Position numbers and translations under genes: made by a program
The notes under the pieces: generated by a model
Databases searched by the model: none
Seen by the model: the letters and a program-made list of their open reading frames with translations, nothing else
Told to the model about the DNA's origin: nothing
Shown here: positions 3,545 through 21,283 of the stretch, in pieces
How positions within the stretch are numbered: position 1 is the first letter of the stretch
Layout of the letters: the number at the start of each line of letters is the position of its first letter
Assembly (NCBI GenBank): GCA_964016885.1
Contig: OZ024743.1
Coordinates: 37,572,001-37,636,000, forward strand
Source: Eledone cirrhosa
Lineage: Eukaryota
Direction of reading: 5' to 3'
DNA length: 64,000 nt

Positions 3545-3822
3545 GTGTATATACACTCACACATATATATATATATATGTATATACATATATATGTATAT
3601 ATATATATATATATATGTAAACTTTTATATGTAATAATCTCCCATTAGGTTGAGATACACATTTGGCTGTATTGTGTTGTGCTTTATAGCAAAAAAGCCA
3701 CCAGCCGTAAGCAACTACCACACCCCTTCCAACCTGACCGCTACTACGTCACGATTCTTAGCCATTTTGAATGAATTCTTGGCGTGATCACTTTCAAAAA
3801 TTTAGTGTCTAGATCAGAGCAA

Positions 3823-3907
3823 ATCTCCTGATGAATCCGATGCTCGAGCTACATAATTATTACATAATTATTGTAACTCAAAATGCTGACGAAACCATGG
3901 TAGAGGT
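3823..3907 (+). ncRNA. Type I hammerhead ribozyme motif with long stem II insert
   Basis: atctc-CTGATGA-(~56 nt)-GAAAC-CATG-GTA-gaggt. Stem I atctc/gaggt, palindromic stem III ACCATGGT, GUA cleavage triplet. First stem II pair is mismatched (A-C). Confidence 0.65.
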
Positions 3908-4165
3908 ATTTAAATGTATTCTATTTTCTCCTAGTTTATTTTACACCTAATTCTGTTTAATTGACTGTATCTAGGCGATTACGCTGTCGAAATATTCGAT
4001 AAATATTCCATTGCGGCCGACGCGAAGGGCTAGTTTCGATTATTTGTTGGAGATTTCTTCATAGAAGCCTCATTCTTATAGCCTGGTCTATTCGATTTTT
4101 TATATAGTTAATTACGCTAATTGGGAGAGGAAATGGTATATATTTTATCTTGTGATTCTAAAGAC

Positions 4166-4206
<41 letters not shown>

Positions 4207-4211
<5 letters not shown>

Positions 4212-6836
4212 TGGAATAAATGCTCTGAAATAGCGATATATATGTGAATATAGACATAGAATATTCGAAAATATTCTGTATGTTTATAATAAACATTTTG
4301 AAGACCTAATCGCTATAGAATAGAATACGTCACGTATTACAATTAGATTCTCGATAAAAGCAAGGGAAGTAATCTACGCGTTTCATTCTTGTTAGAAATC
4401 ATCAGGACTACATATCCAGTGCTTTTATCGAGAATGACACAGCTAGAGACTTATAGAATACTTAGCTGTGTACAGGAACTGGTTTGAAAGAGCGGTTGCC
4501 GGTCCGGCAGAAATTAGAAATTGGAATAAATGCTCTGAAATAGCGATATATATGTGAATATAGACATAGAATATTCGAAAATATTCTGTATGTTTATAAT
4601 AAACATTTTGAAGACCTAATCGCTATAGAATAGAATACGTCACGTATTACAATTAGATTCTCGATAAAAGCAAGGGAAGTAATCTACGCGTTTCATTCTT
4701 GTTAGAAATCATCAGGACTACATATCCAGTGCTTTTATCGAGAATGACACAGCTAGAGACTTATAGAATACTTAGCTGTGTACAGGAACTGGTTTGAAAG
4801 AGCGGTTGCCGGTCCGGCAGAAATTAGAAATTGGAATAAATGCTCTGAAATAGCGATATATATGTGAATATAGACATAGAATATTCGAAAATATTCTGTA
4901 TGTTTATAATAAACATTTTGAAGACCTAATCGCTATAGAATAGAATACGTCACGTATTACAATTAGATTCTCGATAAAAGCAAGGGAAGTAATCTACGCG
5001 TTTCATTCTTGTTAGAAATCATCAGGACTACATATCCAGTGCTTTTATCGAGAATGACACAGCTAGAGACTTATAGAATACTTAGCTGTGTACAGGAACT
5101 GGTTTGAAAGAGCGGTTGCCGGTCCGGCAGAAATTAGAAATTGGAATAAATGCTCTGAAATAGCGATATATATGTGAATATAGACATAGAATATTCGAAA
5201 ATATTCTGTATGTTTATAATAAACATTTTGAAGACCTAATCGCTATAGAATAGAATACGTCACGTATTACAATTAGATTCTCGATAAAAGCAAGGGAAGT
5301 AATCTACGCGTTTCATTCTTGTTAGAAATCATCAGGACTACATATCCAGTGCTTTTATCGAGAATGACACAGCTAGAGACTTATAGAATACTTAGCTGTG
5401 TACAGGAACTGGTTTGAAAGAGCGGTTGCCGGTCCGGCAGAAATTAGAAATTGGAATAAATGCTCTGAAATAGCGATATATATGTGAATATAGACATAGA
5501 ATATTCGAAAATATTCTGTATGTTTATAATAAACATTTTGAAGACCTAATCGCTATAGAATAGAATACGTCACGTATTACAATTAGATTCTCGATAAAAG
5601 CAAGGGAAGTAATCTACGCGTTTCATTCTTGTTAGAAATCATCAGGACTACATATCCAGTGCTTTTATCGAGAATGACACAGCTAGAGACTTATAGAATA
5701 CTTAGCTGTGTACAGGAACTGGTTTGAAAGAGCGGTTGCCGGTCCGGCAGAAATTAGAAATTGGAATAAATGCTCTGAAATAGCGATATATATGTGAATA
5801 TAGACATAGAATATTCGAAAATATTCTGTATGTTTATAATAAACATTTTGAAGACCTAATCGCTATAGAATAGAATACGTCACGTATTACAATTAGATTC
5901 TCGATAAAAGCAAGGGAAGTAATCTACGCGTTTCATTCTTGTTAGAAATCATCAGGACTACATATCCAGTGCTTTTATCGAGAATGACACAGCTAGAGAC
6001 TTATAGAATACTTAGCTGTGTACAGGAACTGGTTTGAAAGAGCGGTTGCCGGTCCGGCAGAAATTAGAAATTGGAATAAATGCTCTGAAATAGCGATATA
6101 TATGTGAATATAGACATAGAATATTCGAAAATATTCTGTATGTTTATAATAAACATTTTGAAGACCTAATCGCTATAGAATAGAATACGTCACGTATTAC
6201 AATTAGATTCTCGATAAAAGCAAGGGAAGTAATCTACGCGTTTCATTCTTGTTAGAAATCATCAGGACTACATATCCAGTGCTTTTATCGAGAATGACAC
6301 AGCTAGAGACTTATAGAATACTTAGCTGTGTACAGGAACTGGTTTGAAAGAGCGGTTGCCGGTCCGGCAGAAATTAGAAATTGGAATAAATGCTCTGAAA
6401 TAGCGATATATATGTGAATATAGACATAGAATATTCGAAAATATTCTGTATGTTTATAATAAACATTTTGAAGACCTAATCGCTATAGAATAGAATACGT
6501 CACGTATTACAATTAGATTCTCGATAAAAGCAAGGGAAGTAATCTACGCGTTTCATTCTTGTTAGAAATCATCAGGACTACATATCCAGTGCTTTTATCG
6601 AGAATGACACAGCTAGAGACTTATAGAATACTTAGCTGTGTACAGGAACTGGTTTGAAAGAGCGGTTGCCGGTCCGGCAGAAATTAGAAATTGGAATAAA
6701 TGCTCTGAAATAGCGATATATATGTGAATATAGACATAGAATATTCGAAAATATTCTGTATGTTTATAATAAACATTTTGAAGACCTAATCGCTATAGAA
6801 TAGAATACGTCACGTATTACAATTAGATTCTCGATA
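4207..6836 (-). repeat. Tandem array of a 310-bp hammerhead-containing unit (retrozyme-like): 8 full copies plus a 150-bp partial
   Basis: Unit starts at 4207, 4517, 4827, 5137, 5447, 5757, 6067, 6377 and 6687. No differences seen by eye, no ORF reported in the track, and the left end abuts (TA)n. Confidence 0.97.
4369..4411 (-). ncRNA. Type I hammerhead ribozyme (copy 1 of 8; others at +310 intervals up to 6539-6581)
   Basis: Minus strand reads GUAGUC CUGAUGA U-UUCU-AACA-AGAA-U GAAAC GC GUA GAUUAC: intact CUGANGA and GAAA boxes, 6-bp stem I, palindromic stem III ACGCGU, GUA triplet. Stem I is extended by a perfect 16-bp helix (4347-4362 with 4420-4435). Confidence 0.85.
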
Positions 6837-6886
6837 TTTTCGAATATTCTATGTCTATATTCACATATATATCGCTATTTCAGAGC
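6834..6886 (-). repeat. 53-bp inverted (fold-back) copy of part of the 310-bp unit
   Basis: Exact reverse complement of 6702-6754 (gctctgaaatagcg...cgaaaatat). Confidence 0.95.
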
Positions 6887-6902
6887 TGGGAATTCTCCCG
6901 TT

Positions 6903-8342
6903 CTATTGCCAGTTGCAGTAGATGTCCGCCAAGAGGCTTCCGAACAAGTCTGGCATCTGTACATAAAGTTCATAGGGCAGACCATCCAAATTACCCCTTG
7001 TGCAGCTAGTCATTGCCTCCCGTACTTCAGCGGCTGTTATCGGCTTTTCGCAACACTCCACCTCAGTGGCCGAGAGCCGCGGCAGTCCGTCGAGGTAGAC
7101 ACTAAAGTCCATCCCTCGATCCGACCAGCCGCTACCCCCGAACAACGTAGCGAAGTGTCGCTGAAAAGCTTTAAACATTTGCCCGGGATCGAGTAGCATG
7201 CGCCCGTCGTGGTCCACCAAAGACCGGATCGTAGCTTTGTTGCCACGACGCGCCTCCGCCACTCGGGCCCATTGAATGGCTTTCGTCCCCTCGTGTCTGA
7301 GAGCACGCACCCTAGCTGTTCGTGCTTTGCATTGAAGAATTGGTCAAGGGCCAATTTCGCCGCAAGTGCGTCGGTCGCGATGCCTTTGCTAAGCGCCTCG
7401 TCTAATTTTCTAACTAATTCTCCCTCTGTTCTATTTTTCTCTATTGCTAAAGCCTTACTGAACCTAATGGACTCTATTCTAATTGTCTTTTCAGAGCAAA
7501 CCACCACTTGTTGTTGACGATGGCCCCCGTCAACGCCCGCTTAACTAGTTCGCTAATCCGGTCTCTGTAGGTCTTGCGCGCTGGTAAGGACGCGTTTAGC
7601 TTCAAGTAGCCGGGACCTCGTCTAAGAAGCCTATCTAAGTCAAGTACACAGATCACGAATTTGTGGTCCGTGTAGCTGACTATCTTGAATTGTGGACAGC
7701 CTATGCTAGACCTATCTATTTCCCTACAAAATACTCTATCTAGATATGATCTGGATGACCCTATGCTATTTGTCCCAGTCCACATTGGCACATTCGGGAA
7801 ATCTAATCGGTACCTGTCAGACAGTTCAAAACGCCTGAGCACGCTGGTGAGGCTCTTGCACCCTCCTCCTCTATCCGCTAATCCCACACAGTCCCAGCGT
7901 GCATCTAAGATCCCGTTCCAGTCGCCTACTAACACTAAAGTTCGGGACGTTCCAAGAAAGGTCTCCAGACGCCGGAACAAATCAGGCCGCCCTGCTCCTG
8001 TCGGGGCATAGACGGCCACTAGCCTTAAAGCTTGGCCGTCTCAGCTGGTCACGTCCAGCACCACCAACTTACCTTCTGGGTCCAAGAAGATGGCACGTAT
8101 GGCGAGATCCAAACCTCTCCGAAAAAGCACAGCAACTCCTCCCCCCGATCCCGGACGGCTGGGAGATGCGTACACATCGTAGCCGCCGAAGTCGGTGCTA
8201 AGGCCCGTGCTTCGGAGATTCTGCTCTCGCTGATGGCCACTACATCTATGTTTAGTGACCTGAGGTCGTTGAGCAGGTGACCCTGCTTCCATGACGACCC
8301 AAAGCCACGCGCATTTATGCTGCCTATTCTGAGTAAGATCAT
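6903..8342 (-). pseudogene. Frameshifted ORF2 N-terminus (APE endonuclease and linker) of LINE copy A
   Basis: Split across ORFs 8049-8342, 8041-8376, 7474-8019, 7037-7507 and 6903-7310. Confidence 0.88.
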
Positions 8343-8437
8343 GTTGAAATGGAGTGGAAAAGATGGGAAAGACCACTTACCTTGCTTCTCGTAGAGGAAG
8401 GACGGTTACTCCATCCTTTTCACTGCTTGTGGCCTCC

Positions 8438-10001
8438 TCAGGAGAGTGCTTGTCGGAAGTCTCCGATGTCTTTGGGGAATTTTTGTTTTAGTGTCATGTA
8501 CGTTTTCTGTGTGATGCGAGTGATTTGTATGTGTGGAGGTGGTGTGAACTTTTGGGTTGTTGTGTTGTCTTTTTCTGTGATGCTGGTGTTGTGTTGGATG
8601 TAGTGTAATAATTGGTTGTTGTTCAAATTTAATGCTGTGTAGTGTGATTCGTTTTGGTTGTTTTGTTTTGTTTGCGTTTGTTGTGGGTTTGTTTCTGTTT
8701 CGATTTTTAGTGACTTTTGTGGTGTTGGGGTTAATGATGGTGTTGGTCTTTGTGGTGATGGGGTTGGTGATGCTGGTGTGGATGGTGGCATATCTGTCCT
8801 ATCTTTTTTGTTTGATAGTTTATTTGTTTCCCTCCGTATTTTGTTTTTGGAAGGGGAGGGAAGAGAATTTTTTCTTTTTTGGTTTCTTTTTTCCTGATAC
8901 CGTTTCCCACTCCTCGTCGTCACAATCTGTCTCCAGTTGTGATAGGCCGGGGAGTGGAAAATCCTCCACAGGCGTTGGTTTTAGTTGTAGCGTGGTGGGT
9001 GGTGTAGGCGCTGGTGCTAGTTCTGGCGCGTTTGGTGGTGGTGGTGTTGGTTGTGCTACTGTTGATGGGGTTGTTGCTGTTACAGTTGCTCCTGTTGTTG
9101 CTGCTATAGTTGTTGCTGCCATCTCTGCTGCTGGTGGTGTTGATGGTTGAGTTACTGGGGTGGGTAAGAGAGGTGGCCTCAACCTTTTAGCCTGAGGGCA
9201 GAAAGCCCTCCACCACAAACGACCACAAACGACACACCTAGGCATTCTGCCCTCGACGATTACAGTGAGGTGGCTGCCGTCAGTGAGGTCTATTACCTCT
9301 GGGATCTCCTCAATGCTTTTTTGGTCCGCTTGGATCAGGAGCTCCATCCCTGATCCGGACCAGTTCTCCTGCTTTTCTTTCGCTATTTCGATTATCTTGG
9401 TGTTGGCGTCGATGCCGGCGAGGACTGCAGCTATTAGCCAGGGAATTTCGATGGCACGTGGAACGTGGGTGACCCTGATCTTTACGAGTCTCTGGCCACA
9501 ATAGCTTGGGACGAGTGTGAAGTCGTCACTTCTTAATGGGTCCATGGAGTGTTCTCTAGCCTCCTGTGGTGTTTCAAAGAACACGTCCACGGTTCCATAT
9601 CTTTGCCCACGTCTGATGTGGGTTTTTTTTGCCCACACATGTCCCAAAGCTTTTTGGATTTGGGACTCGGATGCCCGTTCCACTCGGCGCGATTTTATAT
9701 TAATTGTTCTATAAGACACGGTGCATAGGCGCCGATGCTCCATTTTATTAGGTGTGTGTGTAGGGGGGACCCTGTACCCATCTTTCTTTACCATTTTTTT
9801 GGCTTCTCTTAATTCCTCCTGAGTTACCTGAAATGCTTCGCACTGTTTTGCTACTCTGTCAAAACTCAGGGTGGTTTTCTTAATGTCATTGTTGCTGTTG
9901 TTGTTATCGTTATTTTTGTTATTATTAATTTTAGTTTCAGTTGTGGTGGTGGTGGCGTCAGTGGTGTTCGGTGTGGAAGAGTTCATTTTGGTTGAGTTCA
10001 T
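8438..10001 (-). pseudogene. ORF1 (gag-like) of LINE copy A
   Basis: 393-aa ORF 8820-10001 plus frameshifted tail 8438-8923. Homologous to ORF1 of copy B, with a degenerate zinc knuckle (CVVCGRLWWRAFC) and a Pro/Thr-rich tail. Lies upstream of the APE ORF. Confidence 0.8.
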
Positions 10002-10489
10002 TTCGATATCACGAGTTAATTAATTTTTTTCTTTTGTTTCTGTTGTCACGTTGGTGGTGGGGGTGGTGGTTGTCGCGGTGGTGGTTGAGGTGGCGGCATT
10101 AACACCTGCAGTCATTGGTAATAGCGGGAGATGAATGTCTGCCTGAGACAAATTTAAAATATTGCTACTGCTTATAATTTTAGTGTTTGGCAAACGTAGC
10201 AATATTTACAGTGGTGGTGTCGGTGTGAGGTGTTAGTTTGTGAGGAAGGAGTGAACCTGAGTCATCCATGATTTTTAAAAGAATAACTTTTGTTTGATAA
10301 TTATAAAAGTTTAAATTTTGGGCTCAAGGCCCCAATCCTTTTGGGTGTCCTTTTCAGATAACAATGTATGTGCACATATATACAGTTAACAATAACAAAT
10401 TTCCATGAATGGCAATTTTAAACAACTGAAAATAACAAACCTTTGCGGAGCTCACGATGATACGATTTAGATTTACTACGTAGGTCGCC

Positions 10490-10538
<49 letters not shown>

Positions 10539-12370
10539 GGATGGATAGACTACAGAAAGGCATTTGACATGGTGCCTCATTCTTGGATCACCAAAAGCCT
10601 GGAGATCTTCAGGGTGGCAGATAACATCAGACAGTTGCTGGGCAGGAGTCTGGGGTCCTGGGAGACAGAGTTGACATCAACTGGAGAATCCTTGGAAAGC
10701 GTGAAGATCAAGAGAGGTATCTTCCAGGGAGATAGCCTGTCCCCTCTGTTGTTTGTCCTTGCCCTAATGCCCTTGACCATTATGCTGCGAAAAGTGAGAG
10801 CAGGATACAAGTTGGGAAGGGGAGAGCTTACCATCAATCACCTCCTCTTCATGGACGATCTTAAGCTCTTCGGGAAAAGTGAGAAGGAGTTGGATGTGCT
10901 TGTTGACACTGTCCGTATTTTCAGCAGTGATATATGTATGCAGTTTGGTATTGGTAAATGTGGAGTCATTGTGATGAGGAGGGGTAGGTTGAGCAGAAGT
11001 AGCGGGATCCAGATACCAACAGGTGAGATGATAAAGGAAATTGACTCTGAGGAAGGATACAAGTATTTGGGCGTTCTGGAGGCTGATGGCATAAAGAACA
11101 AAAAAATGAAGGAATTGTTAAGAACTGAATACATTCGGAGAGTAAGGAGCGTATTGAAGTCACATCTGAACAGCAGAAATGCCATAAGCGCAGTAAATTC
11201 CCGAGCTGTGTCTATTATTAGGTACAGTGCGGGAATTCTGAGATGGAATGTTGCTGAACAAAAAGAAATGGATAGGAAGACTAGGAAGCTATTGACTATC
11301 TACAACATGTTCCACAAGAGGAGTGATGTCGATAGACTCTACCTAAGGAGATCTGAGGGTGGAAGAGGTCTTATCAGCATAGAGGACTGTGTTCAGATGG
11401 AGAAAAACAACCTATACAAATACGTGACCTATAGTAAGGAGCCAATGCTCAAAACAGTACTGAAGGAGGGGACAGTAGGCCAGGGGATGTCCAAGGAGGA
11501 AATAACATCAAGGAGGAAGAGCAGCCTTAAGGGAAAATCCCTTCATAGTACCTTCTTTGAGAAAACTGAATTTAGAGATCCACAGACATGGAACTGGTTG
11601 AGAAGAGGAGACCTCAAAAAGGCTACAGAAGGAATGATAATGGCTGCGCAGGAGCAGGCCCTCAAAACGAAGTGGTTGAAGCACCATATTTACAAGGAGG
11701 AGGCTAGCCCACTGTGCAGGATCTGTGGAGAGAGAGAGGAGACTGTGGCTCACATTGTGTCCGAGTGTAAACACCTAGCCCAGACCCACTATAAGGGCTG
11801 GAGACACGATGTGATGGGCAGGGTGATCCACTGGCACCTGTGCAAAGTAAACAATTTACCACACTCTGAGAAATGGTATGAGCATAGGCCGGAGGCGGTG
11901 ATGGAGAACAATCAGGTGAAGGTGCTGTGGGATTTTAGGATACAGACGGACAAAAAACTGGAACACAATAGACCTGACCTGGTGGTTGTGGACAAAGAAA
12001 AAAGATCGTGTCTGATTGTGGATGTGGCCTGCCCGTTCGACACGAGAGTGCAAGAGAAGGAGAGGGAGAAAATTAACCGATACCAGGACCTAAAGTGGGA
12101 GGTGAAAAGGATTTGGAACTGCCATGAAGTCAAAGTGATCCCGATTGTCATAGGCGCACTGGGGACTATCTCCAAAAGTTTCCAGGGATGGTTAAAGAAA
12201 ATCGGCCCCTTCACGCTTTTTGGAACGCTTCAAAAGGCATGCTTGCTTGGAACAGCAAGAACCCTCCGATACGTCCTGAATATCTGAGGCTGCAGGTAGT
12301 GGCTTGATATTCATTCCAACGGACTTTCCAGTTAACCAACATCAATGACTGAGATTCAAGGAATAACAAC

Positions 12371-12402
<32 letters not shown>
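10490..12402 (+). mobile_element. R4/Dong-type LINE copy 1 inserted in (TAA)n
   Basis: (TAA)n tracts on both sides (10490-10536 and ~12362-12402) and a short 3' UTR. Dong elements are known to target TAA repeats. Confidence 0.88.
10536..12287 (+). CDS. 5'-truncated RT plus restriction-like endonuclease ORF of an R4/Dong-clade LINE (583 aa, uninterrupted)
   Basis: RT motifs [27 protein letters not shown] and YKYLG; CCHC knuckle CRICGEREETVAHIVSEC; RHD; PD-(D/E)xK-type RPDLVVVD...IVDVACP. Confidence 0.93.
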
Positions 12403-12404
<2 letters not shown>

Positions 12405-12782
12405 TTTTCTTTATTAACCACAAGGGTTTACATAAAGTAGACATTAAGGACAGTACAGAACAATACAGGACGGTACAAATGGGCATTTCTGCGTGTAAAA
12501 ACAAAAACAGAGGATGTAACAAAAAATAACAATGAAAAAAATTCCCCAATAGGGGGGAGACTTCGGAGGGACATTTGTGGAGAAAGCCCAGTAAAAGGCC
12601 ACAATGACCCTGACCACCAAGGCAAGTGCCCTCTCCCAGTTTTCCACCTTTAATTTACAGATATATACTCAGAGTAGGCCCATTCACTCGGGCCATTCTT
12701 GCTTCTCTCACCCATCTTTCAACAAAATGCTGGGAAGAGAGCACTTCCCTCTCTACTCTGATTTTCCTTTTCAAATGAAATT

Positions 12783-15442
12783 TTAAAAGTCAATCAGAGC
12801 ATCACCGAAGAGGTAAGTGCTCGTCTTCAGCCCTTTCAAACGTGTCCACCATACTATCTCTTTCGCCATGGCCACCAGGCAGATAAAAACTGCCTTCCCT
12901 TCCCGGCTAAAGGAGGAGGGCGGGGCAATCCTCACGATGGACTCAGATGATAGCCGGATCCGTCCTAAACGCGACAGCAGGTGTTCGACATAAACCCACA
13001 AGTCAGCAATGCTCGGACACAGGACGAGTGCGTGCAGGACGGTTTCGTCGCCCTGCGCGCATCTCGGACATGCCCGGCTGACGGCACCTCCATGCCTGTA
13101 GAGTTTATCCCGAACTGGCAAGGCTCCTCGGTAGCACTGCCAGGCCAGAGATTTCTGGAAGTTGTCCATAGGCCCTGGCCCGAAAGTTCTTCCGAAGAGA
13201 TTGGCTAGTTGATTTTCGTCGACGCCTAGAGTTTCTCCAAGTACGTCGTCGCTCTTCCCCTCCACTAATCCTCTATAGAACGCCGAGGTGGAGTTTCCAC
13301 CGATCACATTGCTCGATTGGTCGAGGACTGTAGGCGCCTGAAGACATTCCAGTCTCCAGGCTCTCCCTCTCGGTCTTCGCTTGACCCAGGACTGCAGCTC
13401 CGTCAAGGAAACGAGCTGGGGAAATACGTGTCTAGCAAACGGCGACCACACCTGATCACCGTCGAGGAAGAGGTGGAGATGTCGTAGCCTGAGCGCGTGC
13501 CTGCGCATCATCAGCCACGGCTTGCCCAGCCCTCCACGTAGCGGGTGTTGACAACAGATAGACCGCCTGACCATCGGAGCGCGTCCCTTCCACAAAAAGC
13601 GAAAGAGCAAACGCTCCAGCGCAGTCAGGCGAGGCTTAGGACAAGGTACGACGGCCAGGCGGTAGCAGATGACAGACGCAATGTACGCGTTAGCCACCTC
13701 CGCTCGACCTTTCAGGGACAGCTTCCTCTCCGTGAGAGAAGCCACCCTGCTCGTCACCTCGTCCCAGTTTTTGTCCGTCTGGAGGTCCGGACCGAACCAG
13801 ACCCCTAGCAATTTAACCGGTCCGTCCGTCCAGCGTCCAACGACGCTGTTGGACGTCATGGACCTGCTTCTCCAGGTGCCGAGCTGCAGGCCCACTGACT
13901 TTTCCTGGTTGATCATTGCTCCTGTCACCGCTTCGTATTCTCTTAGTGTAGTGCCGATCGCCTCGATGTGTTTGGCGTTCGACACCACTACGGTGACATC
14001 GTCCGCATATGCTGACACGAATCTTCCGCATCCTAGTTCGCGCGGGACGCCCCTCAACGTCTCCAGTTTGTGCAGTAATGGCTCGAAAGTCAATACGTAC
14101 AAGAGGGACGAGAGGGGACATCCTTGGCGGACCGAGCGCATGATGTTGAACGGTTTCGACAGGTGACCGTTCACTCTCACCACAGAGCAGATGTTGCTGT
14201 GCATGGCAGCGATCCAGCCTCTGAAGACGGGCCCAAAGCCAGCCGCCCTCAGGACTGCGCTAGGTAACGATGGTCGACCCTATCGAAAGCTTTCGACTGA
14301 TCTAAATTGATCAAGAACCCACCCGTGCCAGGTTCCCTAGCTACCCTCTCTACGATGTATCGCATTAGGTGGAGGTTGTCGTGGATGGATCTGTCGGGAA
14401 TGGCGCATGTCTGCGACTCTCCCACCAGACCACCAACGACAAGCGCCAACCTCTCTGCTAGCACCTTGGCCAAAATCTTGAACTCTGTGTTTAGCAGAGT
14501 TATGGGCCGGAAATTATCTATGTTATCCCCCTTGTTCGGATCCTTTCTCAGCAGTGCCAGCGCTCCCCGGCTCACAGAACTGGGAATTCTCCCGTTCTGT
14601 TGCCAGTTGCAGTAGACGTCCGCCAAGAGGCCTCCGAATAAGTCTGGCATCTGTACGTAAAGTTCATATGTAAGACCATCCAAACCAGGCGATTTACCCC
14701 TTGTGCAGCCGGGTCCTCGTCTATGAAGCCTATCTAAGTCAAGCACACAGATCACGAATTTGTGGTCCGTGTAGCTGACTATCTTGAATTGTGGACAGCC
14801 AATGCTAGACCTATCTATTTCCCTACAAAATACTCTATCTAGATATGATCTGGATGACGCTATGCGATTTGTCCAAGTCGACATTGGCACATTCGGGAAA
14901 TCCAATCGGTACCTGTCAGACAGTTCAAAACGTCTGAGCAGGTTGGTGAGGCTCTTGCACCCTCCACCCCTATCCGCTAATCCCACACAGTCCCAGCGTG
15001 CATCTAAGACCCCGTTCCAGTCGCCCACTAACACTAAAGAGCGGGACGTTCCAAGAAAGGTCTCCAGACGCCGGAACAAATCAGGCCGCCCTGCTCCTGT
15101 CGGGGCATAGACGGCCACTAGCCTGAAAGCTTGCCCGTCTCCGCTGGTCACGTCCAGCACCACCAGCTTACCCTCTGGGTCCAGGAAGATGTCCCGTATG
15201 GCGAGATCCAAACCTCTCTGAAAAAGCACAGCAACTCCTCCCCCCGATCCCGGACGGCTGGGAGATGCGTACACATCGTAGCCGCCGAAGATCGGTGCGA
15301 AGGCCCGTGCTTCGGAGATTCTGGTCTCGCTGATGACCACTACATCTATGTTTAGTGACCTGAGGTCGTTGAGCAGGTGACCCTGCTTCCATGACGACCC
15401 CAAGCCACGCGCATTTATGCTGCCTATTCTGAGTGAGGTCAT
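12783..15442 (-). pseudogene. ORF2 (APE-RT-CCHC) of LINE copy B
   Basis: ORFs 14249-15769 and 12783-14204 with a frameshift near 14250. About 600 bp of linker is missing relative to copy A. Confidence 0.9.
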
Positions 15443-15789
15443 GTTTAAAATAGAGTGGAAAAGATGGGAAAGACCACTTACCGTACTTTTGGTAGAGGAG
15501 GGATGGTTTTTACATCCCTTTTCACTTGATCGTCTGGTGAAGGGACCGTTTAATCGTCCCTTCGGCTGGTCGTCGGGTCTTCTATGAGTATGTCCGAATA
15601 TACTCTTCGATTGTGAGTTCCTCCTAGGTCCCTGAGGGAATTTCGTTTTAATGTTTGTGTATTGTTTCTGTGCTATTTTTAGCAGTCTTATGTTAGTTGG
15701 CGTTTTGATTGGTGCTGGTATTATGTAGTCGTGTTGTGAAATGTCTGTGTGTTCAATTATGTAAGTCATTAGTTTCTTGTTGTGTGTAT

Positions 15790-17547
15790 TTATTGCCGTG
15801 CATTTGTTTTTCTGGGGGTGGGGTGTGGTTCTGCTATTTTCTTGTCGTTGTTGCTGGGTGTGTGTGTTTTGTTGTTGTGTTTACGATATTGGTGCTTGTG
15901 GTGGTGGTGTTGAAGGTGTTGTTGGCGGTGGGGTTGTCGCCGGTGGTGATGGTGGTGCTAGTGTGGGTGGTGATGGTGTTGGTGGTGTTGCTGCTGTGAG
16001 TCTCTTTGCAGTAGACTTTACCCTTTTCTCATTTCTTTCCCCCTTTTCAAAGGCGACGATGCGCTGCTTCTGCGTTTGTGCCTTCTTACGACCTTTTGCC
16101 ATCCCTCTCCCACCTCACACTCCATGTCTGATTCTGTGAGGTCGGGCAGGGGTACCAGCTCCACTCTTTCACTTGTTGTTGTTGGTGATGTTTGCACTGG
16201 AGTCTCTGTTGCAGCTGTATTTGGTATTGCTGTTGTTGTTGTTAATATTTCCACTGCTGCTGCTGTTTTTGATTTCCGTGGCGTGGGTATGGGTGCCACG
16301 GACCTATCGTTCCTGGTTGCCGCTTGTCCTGTTGCTGGTAGCCGTGGAGCCGGTTTCGGAAGGAGGGGGTTTTCTCCTTTCTCAGGGTCTTCTCGTTGCA
16401 GAAGGCCCTGAGGTGAGTCTTTGATCCACAGCGAAAGCATTTCGGGCGTTTGCCCTCAACACTTATGGGCAGTTGAGTGCCGTTATCGAAGTCTATCACA
16501 TCCGGGATAGCTTCGATGCACTCCTGGTTGGTTTGGATTAGCATCTCAATGGAGGTGCCGACCCAATCTTCTCTTACTTTTTTCTGTACTTGCAGTACAG
16601 TTGTTTTGTCCTCGATTCCGACGAGGACAGACGCGGCCAGCCAAGAAGAGGCCATCCCGGGGGGGACGTGGGTCAATTTTTTGCCCGCAGTAGGAGGGCA
16701 CCAACACCATTTCCTCGTTCCTTAGGGTCACTAAGGATTGAGCCTTTGCCTCCTGGGGTGTGGCAAAAAGTACGTCTACGGTGGCATATTTTTTGCCTCG
16801 GGTGATGTGCGTTTTCCGCTGCCACACAGACCCCAAGGCTTTTTGTATTTGAGCCTCTGTGGCTCTTTCAACCCTACGGGATTTTGTACTTACTGTACGG
16901 TACGTGACCGTACAGTGCTGTTGGGTTTCGAAAAATGTTTCCGTTGCCTTGCAGATTGCTCGGTGTCCAGTCTTTGTCACCATCTTCTTCGCTTCCTCTA
17001 ATTCCTCATTTGTTATGAGGATTGTTTCCAGGTTTTTCGTAATACCTGCAAATGAGATTTGTTTTTCTTTGCTGCTGTTGTTGTTGTTGTCGTCAGAGCT
17101 GCTGTTACTTTTGTTGTTGCTGCAGGTACTACGATTACTGCCTCCGCCGCTGATGCTGTGGTTGTTGTTGGTGTTGCTGCTGCTAATGCTGTTGTTGTTT
17201 ATGCTGCTGGTGATGCTGTTGCGGCTGCTACTGTTGTTTTCATTGTCACTGTTGCTGTTGTTATTACGGCTGCTATTGCTATTATTCCTGACGTCAGACG
17301 AATGAAATGGGTTTTCGTATTTCCCGCACACCTGTTTCGTCGTTGTCGTCGTCGTCGTGGAGAAATCTTGCACGCTTTGCACGAGACTTTTCTTTTTTGT
17401 CGTCGCTTGCGAAAGAGAAGGGAGGGAGAGAGACACATTTAAAGAAGGGAGGGAGAGAGACAATCTTCTCTCTGCTGTAGTGATGATTGAGGAAGAAGAA
17501 GACGGAATGAGTGGGAGTGACCTATGAAAATTCTTTTTCGTAGCCAT
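15790..17547 (-). pseudogene. ORF1 of LINE copy B (frameshifted)
   Basis: ORFs 16546-17547, 16242-16676, 16018-16440 and 15881-16102. CCHC knuckle CFRCGSKTHLRAFC and an Asn/Ser-rich N-terminal tract. Confidence 0.8.
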
Positions 17548-17765
17548 GTTGGTTTTTTTTGTTTAAAATAAATATTCGGCACAAAACCCCAATAAGCAGT
17601 TATTTAACCCCGAAGGGCCAAATAACAGGCAGAAAGACCCTCTGTCACGAGGAGGAGGGTGTTTTTGTCTACAAGTTCGTTAAAGTTTTAAACAATTTAC
17701 AATTGTTATAGCGTTCAAAATTTACAATACTTTACAGAGCCGAGCCTCCGTCAACCATAGCATTC

Positions 17766-17803
<38 letters not shown>

Positions 17804-18059
17804 GAAGAAGAAGAAGAAAACGCACATGGTGGATATATATCGTTATGGAATCGCTCCCGTACGTTTTTGATTTTTACTTATTTAAAACAACTGTGATAGA
17901 ATAATTATTATTACAAATGAAGTATAAAATTACAGTTATTACGCTCAGCAAGCCATAACGCTTCACTTTACGCCATAGGGCCCCAATATTTAATATTTAA
18001 TTTTGGATCAGAAATGTTATAGTCGAACAATGATAGTGGGAACAATGATAGTGGGAAAC

Positions 18060-20914
18060 CTATGAACCTAAGATTTGTAGACAGGAAAAAGTTAAAAGAA
18101 ACAACAGCTAAGGTAAACAAAGTCATCCCATACCTTGAGGCGAGGAGCCTTCACCAGTGCAACAATATCCTCAAAGCAACAGCAAATGCGGTGAGGAAAT
18201 TACTTGGCATAACAGCGAGAGGAAATAACAAACAAGATAGATCAGAACCTTGGGGGAAGAAACGACTGAATGGTCAAATCAGGGAAATGAGAAATGACAT
18301 TGGAAAGCTTGAGTTCCTACTGAATGGGACACTAAAAAACATAGACACTAAAAATAGACTGGAAATAAAGTACAAAACTAGGAGGAAAAAGCTAAATATT
18401 ATCATAGAGGAACTGAAGCAACGCATTGTAGCAAAGAGTGCAAAAATTAGGCGATACGAGAGCAGAGTCAGTCAGTATAGACAGAACCGCATGTTTGATA
18501 ACAACCAGAAGATGCTGTTTGGACAGTTGAAGGGAAAGAAAGAGGCAACGACTTGATCCCTGAAGGCGGAAGAAACTAAGACATTCTGGAGAGGAATATG
18601 GGAGCAGGATGTTAAACATAATGACCAGGCAGTGTGAATTGAGACAGTACAAAATGAGATAGTGAACAGGCACACCAACAAACTGAATTGAGTATCACAG
18701 TTGAAACTCTTAAGGGGCAGGCTAAAAAAACTAACCAACTGGAAATCACCAGGCCCATCTCTCCACCCGAAACTGACAGCCATGTTCAATGACTGCTTGG
18801 TGTCAGGAGAGGTACCAGAGTGGTTGACAAAAGGTACACAGTTCTGGTAATGAAAGACCGAATCAAGGGTAATGATGTTACCAACTATAGACCTATCACA
18901 TGTCTGTCCGTAATGTGGAAACTGTTGACAAGCATTATGTCTGAGGAAATCTGAGGAAATCTACCATCACCTCCACACAAGAAACTTGTTACCGGACGAA
19001 TAGAAAGGATGCCGAAAGAAGTCGCGTGGTAGAAAGGACCACTTACTTATTGATAAGATGTTAATGAGGAATTGCAAGAGGAGACACACAGGTCTTGCCA
19101 TGGTGCCTCATTCTTGGATCACCAAAAACATAGAGATCTTCAAGGTGGCAGATAACATCAGACAGTTGTTGGGCAAAAGTATGAAGTCCTGGAAAACAGA
19201 GTTAATATCAGCTGGAGAATCCTTGGGTGACCTGAAGATCAAGAGAGGTATCTTCCAGGGAGATAGTCTGTCCCCTCTGTTGTTTGTCCTTGCCCTGATG
19301 CCCTTGACCATTATACTGCGAAAAGTGAGAGCAGGATAGAAGTTGGGAAAGGGAGAGCTTACCATCAATCACCTCCTCTTCATCGACGATCTTAAGCTCT
19401 TCGGGAAGAGTGAGAAGGAGTTGGGTGTGCTTGTTGACACTCTACGTATTTTCAGCAGGGATATATGTATGCAATTTGGTATTAATAAGTGTGGAGTTCT
19501 AGTGATGAAGAGGGGTAAATTGAGCACAAGCAACGGAATCCAGGTACCAACTACCAACAGGTGAGATGATAAAGGAAATTGGCACTGGAGAAGGATACAA
19601 ATATTTGGTGTTCTGGAGGCTGATAACACCAAGAACAAAAAAATGAAGGAATTGATAAAATCTGAGACATTAGGAGAGTAAGGAGCGTATTAAAATCACA
19701 TCTAAATAGTCGGAATGTCATAAGTGCTGTAAATTCCCGAGTTGTGTCTATTATTAGGTACAGTGCGGGAATTGTGAAATGGAATGTTGCTGAACAAAAA
19801 GAAATGGATAGGAAGACTAGGAAGCTATTGATTATCTACAACATGTTCCACAAGAGGAGTGATGTCGATAGACTCTACTTAAAGAGATCTGAAGATGGAA
19901 GAGGTATCAGCATAGAGAACTGTGTTCAGATGGAGAATAACAACCTACACAAATACGTGACCGACAGTAGGGAGCCAATGCTCAGAATTGTACTGAAGGA
20001 GAGAACAATAGACCAGGGGATGTCCAAGGTGGAAATAACAACAAGGAGGAAGACCAACCTTCATGAAAAATCCCTTCATGGTACCTTCTTTGAGAAAACT
20101 GAATTTAGAGATCCACAGACATGGAACTGGTTAAAAAGAGGAGACCTTAAAAAGGCTACAGAAGGAATGTTAATCGCTGCGCAAGAGCAGGCACACATAA
20201 CGAAGTGGGTGAAACACCATATTTACAAGGTGGAGGCTAGCCCACTGTGTAGGACCTGTGGAGAGAGAGAGGAGACTGTGGCTCACATTGTATCCGAGTG
20301 TAAACACCTAGCCCAGACTTACTATAAAGGCTGGATGATGTGATGGGCAGGGTGATCCACTGGCACCTATGCAAAGTAAACAAGTTACCACATTCTGAGA
20401 AGTGGTATGAACATAAGCCAGAGTCGGTGATAGAAAACGATCAGGTGAAGGTGATATGGTATTTTAGGATACAGACGGATAATAAACTGGAACACAATAG
20501 ACCTGACCTGGTGGTTTTGGACAAGGAAAACAGATCATGCCTGATTGTAGATGTAGACTGCCCATTTGACACGGGAGTGCAAGAAAAGGAGAGGGAGAAA
20601 ATTAACCGATACCAAGACTTAAAGTGGGAGGTAAAAAGGATTTGGAACTGCCATGAAATCAAGGTTGTTCCGATTGTCATAGGCGCACTAGGTACTATCT
20701 CAAAGAGTTTCCAATGATGGTTAAAGAAAGTTAGTCCAGCCCCGCTTTTTGGAATACTTCAAAAGGCATGCTTGCTGGGAACAGCAAGAACCCTCCGATC
20801 CGTCCTGAATATCTGAGGCTGCAGGTAGCGGCTTGATATTCATTTCAACAAACTTTCCAGTTAAATAACATCAATGACTGAGACACAAAGAACAATAATA
20901 ACAATGATAATAAT
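18060..20914 (+). mobile_element. R4/Dong-type LINE copy 2, longer but decayed
   Basis: Same RT-RLE motifs as 10536-12287, broken into ORFs 18062-18556, 19058-19339, 19343-19564, 19744-20343 and 20340-20717. Same 3' UTR and a degenerate (TAA)n tail. Confidence 0.9.
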
Positions 20915-20997
20915 ACTGATTTCATTTATTGGCCACAGGGGCCGACATGTACGGGATAATACAAAGACACGTTCACTGGTCGTCTCTACGTTACAAT

Positions 20998-21230
20998 TCA
21001 TAGCGAATGGTCTTCGAAATGTTTTTAATTAAACATGCAGTATTTTATCAAATATACTAGACATATATTCATATATACATCACTATTTCAGAGCAACAAT
21101 ACTAATACCTAAACCGCTCTGTTTAATCAGTTCTTAAACATTACTGGTATTCTATAAGAATCCAGCTTCTATAATTCTTGACAGAATCGAAGGGGTAAGT
21201 AGTCTCGGTAACCGCTAAACGAGCGAGAAT
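20998..21230 (+). repeat. Diverged single partial copy of the 310-bp retrozyme-like unit
   Basis: Colinear blocks shared with the reverse complement of the unit: atagcga..ggtcttc.aaatgttt, taaacat.cag, ctatttcagagca, aaccgctct, cagttc, gtattctataag, gtagtc. Confidence 0.75.
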
Positions 21231-21248
21231 TTATATATATATATAATG

Positions 21249-21283
<35 letters not shown>

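Follow-up and report, generated by a model that had tools for sequence, protein, structure and literature searches.

A 310-nt tandem repeat of Eledone cirrhosa as a probable hammerhead retrozyme with apparent selection on parts of its predicted RNA fold

Metazoan retrozymes are tandem repeats of about 170–400 nt that carry type I hammerhead ribozymes and are expressed as circular RNAs (circRNAs), which are predicted to be highly self-paired (PMC7229834). Most metazoan type I hammerheads share an architecture with a very short helix III, and in amphibians such as newts and axolotl dimers are needed (PMC4209133; PMC7229834). Metazoan retrozymes are circularised by tRNA ligase (PMC7229834). Here we describe a tandem array in the genome of Eledone cirrhosa. 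It lies at positions 4207..6836 of a 64,000-nt stretch of contig OZ024743.1 (assembly GCA_964016885.1, positions 37,572,001 to 37,636,000), hereafter the window, numbered from its first base. We consider it highly probable that the 310-nt unit of this array is one repeat of a hammerhead-bearing retrozyme without long terminal repeats (LTRs), whose minus-strand transcript would likely be cut and ligated to a 310-nt circle with a branched, helix-rich fold.

In several respects the unit resembles the metazoan non-LTR retrozymes described from coral, mussel and axolotl (Cervera and de la Pena 2020, PMC7229834): its length falls within the 170–400 nt range, its GC content is below 50%, its hammerhead is of type I, it exists in thousands of copies, its circle is predicted to be self-paired and Penelope-like elements (PLEs) occur in the same genome. 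Furthermore, no LTR, primer-binding site or polypurine tract was noticed in the flanks that were read, no dedicated search having been run. Those retrozymes are expressed as circRNAs, whereas the circle of the present unit is a predicted one; in addition, three related lineages permit a covariation test of the whole circle. Moreover, the fixed (TA)n outer ends and head-to-head arms described below do not appear in the account of metazoan retrozymes that we drew on from PMC7229834. Plant LTR retrozymes differ more clearly, since they possess two LTRs with type III hammerheads, a primer-binding site and a polypurine tract, while the present unit carries a type I motif, is tandem and has (TA)n flanks.

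Tandem Repeats Finder (TRF) reported the array with a period of 310, 8.5 copies and 100% matches. It consists of eight full copies without a single mismatch among them and a remainder of 150 nt. The reference unit (4207..4516) is AT-rich (34% GC) and contains one hammerhead core, so that eight cores are present, all on the minus strand, which is thus the ribozyme-sense strand of the array. The unit is non-coding: its longest ATG-started frame spans 30 codons and no long circular reading frame exists. In the literature library searched in full text, no paper carried the core sequence of the unit.

The type I hammerhead motif (4369..4411, minus strand) was identified by an Rfam match to Hammerhead_HH9 and by direct reading. 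The 5′ strand of helix I (4411-4406) pairs with the 3′ strand (4374-4369) as GUAGUC/GAUUAC, that is, 6 bp including one G·U, and helix I is open, which corresponds to type I. The core CUGAUGA (4405-4399) is followed by helix II with its loop (4398-4385), in which four base pairs (UUCU/AGAA) stand above a U·U at the base, by GAAA (4384-4381), by helix III with the sequence ACGCGU (4381-4376) and by A17 (4375), with the cut predicted between 4375 and 4374. All invariant core bases, namely CUGAUGA…GAAA and A17 as an H17 that is not G, were intact in 8 of the 8 copies. The Rfam scan of 3600-7600 assigned Hammerhead_HH9 to every copy (4355-4420 in the first; 19.2 bits, E 0.33), exclusively on the minus strand; it yielded no hammerhead on the plus strand and no other Rfam ribozyme family at E 1 or better on either strand.

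Helix III comprises merely 2 bp and a 2-nt loop, so a single copy cannot close it, while its palindromic sequence allows two copies to pair with each other. Indeed, two 53-nt domains were calculated to cofold at −20.7 kcal/mol as compared with −7.3 kcal/mol for one domain. The cofold consisted of a 6-bp intermolecular ACGCGU helix with both helices II formed and both cores unpaired, which is the arrangement of a classical double hammerhead. In this the unit matches the satellite 2 hammerheads of newt and axolotl (HHR_Amex1, HHR_Amex2) and the double hammerhead of Forster et al. 1988, where a unit of about 330 nt, a helix III that is too short, a palindromic loop and an activity expected only in the dimer are combined (PMC7229834; PMC4209133). 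The U·U at the base of helix II is likewise found in HHR_Amex2 of axolotl (PMC7229834; PMC4209133). The sequences, however, are unrelated, the present helix III has 2 bp and a 2-nt loop, and older relatives of the unit possess a closable helix III.

A search of the 3.0-Gb assembly with the 43-nt hammerhead pattern, allowing up to three mismatches, gave 15,577 matches (8046 forward and 7531 reverse), while the reversed pattern gave none genome-wide. Sampled copies were 97–100% identical to the unit of the window. The 310-nt family is a young family of hammerhead-bearing tandem repeats, organised in short, internally uniform arrays that are dispersed across the genome. On the outside, the arrays border directly on (TA)n, and in at least 100 cases the junction falls exactly at unit position 4. 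Many loci consist of two head-to-head arms with a variable inner joint. The opposite arm could be followed to its far end in eight of 30 loci, and in each of the eight it ended at unit position 30, which is where the unit itself reads ATATATAT. In the window, the outer end of the array abuts a (TA)17.5 microsatellite detected by TRF (4172..4206, no strand), the likely insertion target, and the left junction sits 3 bases further out than is usual for the family. At the other end, a short inverted arm (6834..6886, ribozyme sense on the plus strand) runs from unit position 68 down to 16, head to head with the main array. This 53-nt arm stops at position 16 against GC-rich, LINE-like sequence (related to long interspersed nuclear elements) and not at position 30 beside (TA)n.

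Inspection of the window sequence had earlier suggested (hereafter the initial annotation) that the unit is largely self-complementary like a viroid-type RNA, and a list of helices had been given. A direct sequence check recovered each of these helices at its position. On the ribozyme strand, the most extended is a perfect 16-bp helix, whose 3′ arm (4347..4362) is the reverse complement of its 5′ arm (4420..4435). Since it prolongs helix I of the hammerhead beyond an internal loop, the description of this helix as clamping the ribozyme was apt, and we refer to it as the clamp. A left domain (4230..4316) is closed by a perfect 8-bp helix (4230-4237/4309-4316) and encloses two hairpins, 4258-4277 (8 bp) and 4280-4296 (7 bp). 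The first reads AGAATATT-CGAA-AATATTCT on the plus strand and therefore displays the UUCG loop that had been noted for the ribozyme strand. Further hairpins are found at 4324..4338 (6 bp and a 3-nt loop; a 14/15 palindrome of lineage-specific sequence), at 4437..4471 (9 bp with perfect arms 4437-4445/4463-4471, the loop containing the invariant block UUCUAUAAG) and at 4497..4509 (5 bp and a 3-nt loop in the fold; a 12/13 palindrome). A 5-bp helix, GCUCU/AGAGC (4222..4226 with 4489..4493), closes the multiloop and is invariant in all three lineages. The predicted fold of the 310-nt circle is branched without any rod, and about 60% of the bases are paired.

Circular minimum free energies (MFEs) were compared with those of 300 dinucleotide shuffles for both strands. 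The plus strand reached −77.9 kcal/mol (shuffles −53.8 ± 4.6; z −5.2) and the minus, ribozyme strand −67.8 kcal/mol (−47.0 ± 4.6; z −4.5), with 0 of 300 shuffles as low in either case, so the folding energy proved to lie outside the shuffled distribution, as the initial annotation had anticipated. Four perfect stems of at least 8 bp were present, while 1000 shuffles had 0.83 on average and 8 of them reached four; the longest stem measured 16 bp against a maximum of 12 bp among the shuffles. In contrast, stems of at least 6 bp summed to 78, well within chance (70 ± 21), in a count that is blind to 3-nt loops equally in unit and shuffles. The signal thus resides in a few long helices and not in a general excess of small ones, and the earlier claim of a helix density beyond chance holds for the long stems and the folding energy but not for the short stems. 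An alternative view is that the array is ordinary satellite DNA with the relic of a dead hammerhead, its helices being chance palindromes of AT-rich DNA devoid of RNA function. The low GC content of 34%, the ordinary sum of short stems and an Rfam score below threshold would all fit such a satellite. A folding energy outside 300 of 300 shuffles, a 16-bp stem outside 1000 of 1000 and a hammerhead core with every invariant base intact in eight of eight copies would not, and dispersed short arrays with fixed (TA)n ends correspond to the pattern of a mobile element rather than to a satellite block.

Related families in the same genome allowed us to examine the helices comparatively. BLAST of the unit against the window revealed a diverged copy at 20979..21235 (plus strand), 70–80% identical, from which the hammerhead core is deleted. 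It ends at a (TA)n tract (21232-21275) and lies 14 kb from the young array, past a block of LINE-like fragments. A genome search with this old copy led to 2616 first-look candidates and 62 scored matches. The copies of this old family are 74–83% identical to that of the window, and the 310-nt unit has, over its full length, a homologous counterpart in the old-family unit of about 305 nt. Through one outlying copy in this search we reached a second young family with a 316-nt unit (L143:1711-2026; loci L142-L171), the copies of which are 95–100% alike and form tandem and inverted arms. The 316-nt unit is homologous to that of the window over its whole length (63% identity, 191/303 aligned positions), and the circular fold of its ribozyme strand (−79.9 kcal/mol versus −51.0 ± 4.9; z −6.0) shows the same helix layout.

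The hammerheads of the three lineages differ in informative positions. The 316-nt family exhibits a U3-A8 pair, a closable 4-bp helix III and C17, and scored 24.0 bits (E 0.031) in Rfam, while the two old-family loci scanned (L115 and L140) gave no Rfam hammerhead match at E 1 or better. In the old relatives helix III is closable as well, with 3 bp and a GGAC loop, so the dimer-only form of the 310-nt lineage is derived. At the catalytic tertiary pair, C3-G8 characterises the 310-nt family (window 4405/4400), whereas U3-A8 is found in the 316-nt family and in the old family (25 of the 29 rows that have letters at that pair; A2 columns 262, 267). Since the 316-nt family is young, the U3-A8 form is carried by a recently amplified lineage. 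Covariation between C3-G8 and U3-A8 has already been reported for PLE hammerheads of Schistosoma (PMC4209133).

For the covariation analysis, 31 rows were aligned with MAFFT (two of the 310-nt family, 28 of the old family and one partial 316-nt copy; the overlapping loci L119 and L133 were excluded) and 79 pairs were named from the window unit. In total, 82.0% of 2051 cells pair, compared with 32.8–43.8% when the partners are slid by 1–3 columns. Pairs changed on both sides numbered 22 (8–17 in the slid controls), the covariation score was 0.101 (0.037–0.053), and none of 500 shuffles reached any of five measures of pairing and covariation. Because a structure derived from one of the rows has an inherent advantage and the shuffle control is inflated by kinship, more weight belongs to the slid control. 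Moreover, since neutral decay sets in once an old-family copy has inserted, information can be drawn only from how the lineages differ.

The clamp provides the clearest case. With its register defined by the last 16 bases of the rotated unit and their best ungapped partner, 16 of 16 positions pair in both the 310-nt and the 316-nt families. Between these families nine of the 16 pairs differ, eight on both sides and one on one side (U-A to U·G), and all are kept, while seven are unchanged; the changes in the two arms are coupled (Fisher p = 0.0007). Old-family clamps keep 12–16 of the 16 pairs, the best of them (L115) 16/16 with three G·U. The compensatory changes that the initial annotation had proposed to look for among diverged copies are thus present, and eight double changes between two young families are hard to reconcile with chance palindromes in a satellite, a reading that we regard as highly improbable. 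The ribozyme behaves similarly: helix II reads UUCU/AGAA, CGCU/AGCG and GCUU/AAGC in the three lineages and is paired in each, and helix I covaries both in relation to the 316-nt family and inside the old family, one subfamily of which has G-C in place of A-U.

Outside the clamp, the comparison of the 310-nt and 316-nt units was less uniform. Among double changes seven were kept and one was lost, and among one-sided changes three were kept and eight lost. The lost pairs belong to the 4497-4509 hairpin (three), to the inner end of 4230-4237/4309-4316 (three) and to single terminal or internal pairs of three helices. A conserved core nevertheless emerges, consisting of the clamp, the hammerhead, 5 to 7 of the 8 pairs of 4230-4237/4309-4316 and the hairpin 4258-4277, and two conserved helices, 4280-4296 and 4222-4226/4489-4493, can be added to those listed originally. 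The UUCG loop itself is not conserved, its place being taken by AUCA or GCCA in the old family and by GCAA in the 316-nt family. Of helix 4437-4471 only the three inner pairs are kept in relatives, and hairpin 4497-4509 is kept in the old family with a U·G pair. Hairpin 4324-4338 is paired in register in 27% of cells, and the relatives carry a hairpin of the same size and of other sequence about 5 nt away. Four double changes seen there by eye require this shift of about 5 nt, and we therefore counted the element as a replaced hairpin and not as a covarying helix. Together, these comparisons support selection on RNA structure in three places, namely the clamp, the ribozyme and a portion of the left domain, as judged from the pattern of paired changes. 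The initial suggestion of such selection on the unit at large is accordingly narrowed, with 4324-4338, the outer part of 4437-4471 and 4497-4509 appearing lineage-specific.

Four minus-strand blocks show no variation between the two young families and the old-family majority: GGTCTTCAAAATG, GCTATTTCAGAGC, CAACCGCTCT and TTCTATAAG, located at 4300-4312, 4219-4231, 4486-4495 and 4450-4458, respectively. The first and the last are single-stranded in the predicted fold, and the TATA-like block at 4450-4458 lies in the loop of the 4437-4471 hairpin.

A number of observations weigh against a retrozyme whose RNA fold is under selection. The Rfam hammerhead score of 19.2 bits lies far under the gathering score of 52, and an isolated 54-nt hammerhead domain is no more stable than its shuffles (z −0.73). 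The 5′ ends of old-family insertions, considered as possible scars of the cut site, were scattered, several of them 14–27 nt downstream of the predicted site, and none coincided with it. As for the helices, eight of the 11 one-sided changes outside the clamp break their pair with respect to the 316-nt family, in which hairpin 4497-4509 is lost outright. RNAalifold predicted no pairs when given all 31 rows, many of which are partial or decayed. A reduced set of six rows, made up of both young units plus four old copies picked partly for intact clamps, gave 79 pairs in which most of the named helices recur. Kept double changes occur at 14 of these pairs, yet the covariation term was net positive (+3.15). 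The informative lineages are only three, with all relatives from one genome, and in this unit the fold of the plus strand is the more stable one (−77.9 kcal/mol, against −67.8 kcal/mol for the ribozyme strand).

Folding energy was consequently an ambiguous guide to the functional strand of the unit, and we turned to wobble pairs and transmitted variants. The majority state of the old family is G·U, as read on the ribozyme strand, at four helix pairs versus A·C at one, and that pair belongs to the part of 4437-4471 that is not conserved. The 310-nt family itself was sampled at 52 loci, all from one contig and many overlapping, which resolved into 15 array-level variant profiles with 14 substitutions. 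Six of these fall in helices, and each of the six preserves or improves pairing on the ribozyme strand; on the plus strand, four (A to G opposite U) would produce C·A. The remainder comprise two in loop 2, one at the variable core position 7 and five in unpaired stretches; none of the 14 affects an invariant core base. That transmitted variants avoid the breakage of pairs also speaks against a functionless satellite. Taken together, G·U pairs and transmitted variants point modestly to the ribozyme strand as the one that would be functional. Across the arrays of contig C1, array-level substitutions affect 13 sites, nine of which lie in the hammerhead and clamp part at unit positions 149-220 (window 4355-4426), and several recur between arrays. 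The family is therefore divided into sublineages whose differences are concentrated in the ribozyme domain.

The likeness to viroids noted at the outset deserves separate consideration. Like the Avsunviroidae and hammerhead-bearing circular satellite RNAs, the unit would be a small non-coding circle with predicted hammerhead processing and dense branched pairing, and it shares the logic of a dimer-only hammerhead with avocado sunblotch viroid (ASBVd). One alternative is a true viroid-like replicon, copied from RNA to RNA, whose genomic arrays would arise as a side effect when the RNA is now and then reverse transcribed. In its favour, the folds of both strands are far more stable than those of shuffles, plant retrozymes have been suggested to replicate from RNA to RNA (PMC9695139), and mussel circRNA clones are not exact matches to genomic copies (PMC7229834). 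In contrast to the Avsunviroidae, however, the hammerhead was found on one polarity only, with no other Rfam ribozyme at E 1 or better in 3600-7600, and there is a DNA stage with thousands of near-identical nuclear copies that have defined insertion ends. A hammerhead on one strand only, together with thousands of genomic DNA copies, identifies the element as a retrozyme and not as a viroid. Uniform arrays are what one template each would leave behind, and the G·U evidence favours a single functional polarity. We thus consider an RNA-to-RNA replicon very unlikely. The self-paired, helix-rich fold of the original comparison stands, while the resemblance to viroids is one of analogy.

The genome also harbours a hammerhead linked to PLEs. 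Its core family, CTGATGATTTCTAAAGAATGAAAC, gave 19,660 matches (L049-L078, e.g. L052:1501-1524), occurs singly or as facing pairs, and the element ends in …ATATTAAAAC next to (TA)n. Over the searched stretch CUGAUGA–helix II–GAAAC it shares 24 of 26 bases with the unit, the sole difference being a 2-base indel. Matches to a PLE-like open reading frame (ORF) were obtained in 12 of 33 loci searched, of which 30 had been fetched on the PLE-linked hammerhead and three were stretches around pairs of it. This ORF shows a weak GIY-YIG Pfam match, and its atlas neighbours carry HTH_animal, RVT_1 and GIY-YIG. A canonical fold drawn by eye for the PLE-linked hammerhead was supported neither by the MFE nor by Rfam (E 1 or better). 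With the minimal PLE hammerheads described previously (Cervera and de la Pena 2014, PMC4209133) the present system shares the U3-A8 pair, which occurs in both relatives of the unit, and insertion next to (TA)n. The unit differs from them in that it codes for nothing, has a canonical 6-bp helix I and forms a 310-nt tandem repeat instead of the pseudo-LTRs of a 3–4 kb element (PMC4209133). It has recently been argued in a preprint that PLEs gave rise to animal retrozymes (10.64898/2026.07.22.740005).

At L043:1866-1975 two facing cores of the PLE-linked type form a perfect palindrome of about 110 nt beside (TA)n and (GA)n. Such a structure could be cited for the idea that the inverted repeats act in DNA and not in RNA, as hairpins or cruciforms of a foldback-type or rolling-circle DNA transposon. 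Likewise, many loci are head-to-head arrays, and Watson–Crick helices are equal on both DNA strands. G·U pairs, however, are tolerated on one strand only (three in one old-family clamp with 16/16 pairs, one or two in the 316-nt family), and what the clamp arms enclose is a ribozyme. Furthermore, complex tandem and inverted insertions and an insertion bias to microsatellites are described as traits of Penelope-like retroelements (PMC8557442). Action at the DNA level hence strikes us as the least probable of the readings considered.

For the retrozyme, the following route can be proposed. The minus strand of the array would be transcribed as a multimer, in which two neighbouring copies may pair ACGCGU with ACGCGU to create a double hammerhead that cuts after A17 (4375/4374). 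The excised monomer would be circularised by host tRNA ligase, as in other retrozymes, and the clamp together with the absence of a partner could protect the circle from being cut again. Finally, at (TA)n sites, the circle would be copied by rolling target-primed reverse transcription, probably through a PLE; such a process would account for arrays that are tandem, internally uniform and head to head.

Additional observations concern other hammerheads and the surroundings of the array. Loci L031-L048 contain 18 Hammerhead_1 matches above the Rfam cut-off (up to 37.8 bits), of the classical GUCC-UAAAUA-GGAC type and unrelated in sequence to the 310-nt unit. Two Hammerhead_HH9 matches of 37.7 bits, 467 nt apart (L052:2213-2284 and 2680-2751), may represent another hammerhead tandem repeat. 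In the window, the region of about 14 kb at 6887-20970 comprises pieces of Exo_endo_phos, RVT_1 and zf-RVT on both strands, and dinucleotide microsatellites are very abundant throughout the window, with (TA)n, (AC)n or (GT)n making up the majority of the 86 TRF rows.

Beyond the identity of the element, we put forward a two-part proposal, which we rate as improbable in its joint form. First, the two thirds of the circle outside the ribozyme might be a selected platform rather than a spacer, whose covarying stems would present four blocks invariant across the three lineages, GGUCUUCAAAAUG, GCUAUUUCAGAGC, CAACCGCUCU and the TATA-like UUCUAUAAG; these might be read by the reverse transcriptase of a PLE or act as an internal promoter. 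Second, the catalytic module of the 310-nt family (U3-A8 to C3-G8, a new helix II, C17 to A17) might have been copied from the hammerhead of the PLE partner. If both were true, this genome would constitute a natural experiment on what a retrozyme circle needs for its mobilisation.

The kind of element, the dimer-only hammerhead and a likely link to PLEs are already in print, so nothing basic is changed by the present locus. Retrozyme circles, however, have been called highly self-paired mostly on the basis of single-sequence folds, and three homologous lineages, two young and one old, allow a comparative test. In this comparison, paired changes preserve the long clamp helix, the helices of the ribozyme and a few hairpins, whereas other helices are gained and lost, which points to the parts of a retrozyme circle, and the strand, on which selection acts.

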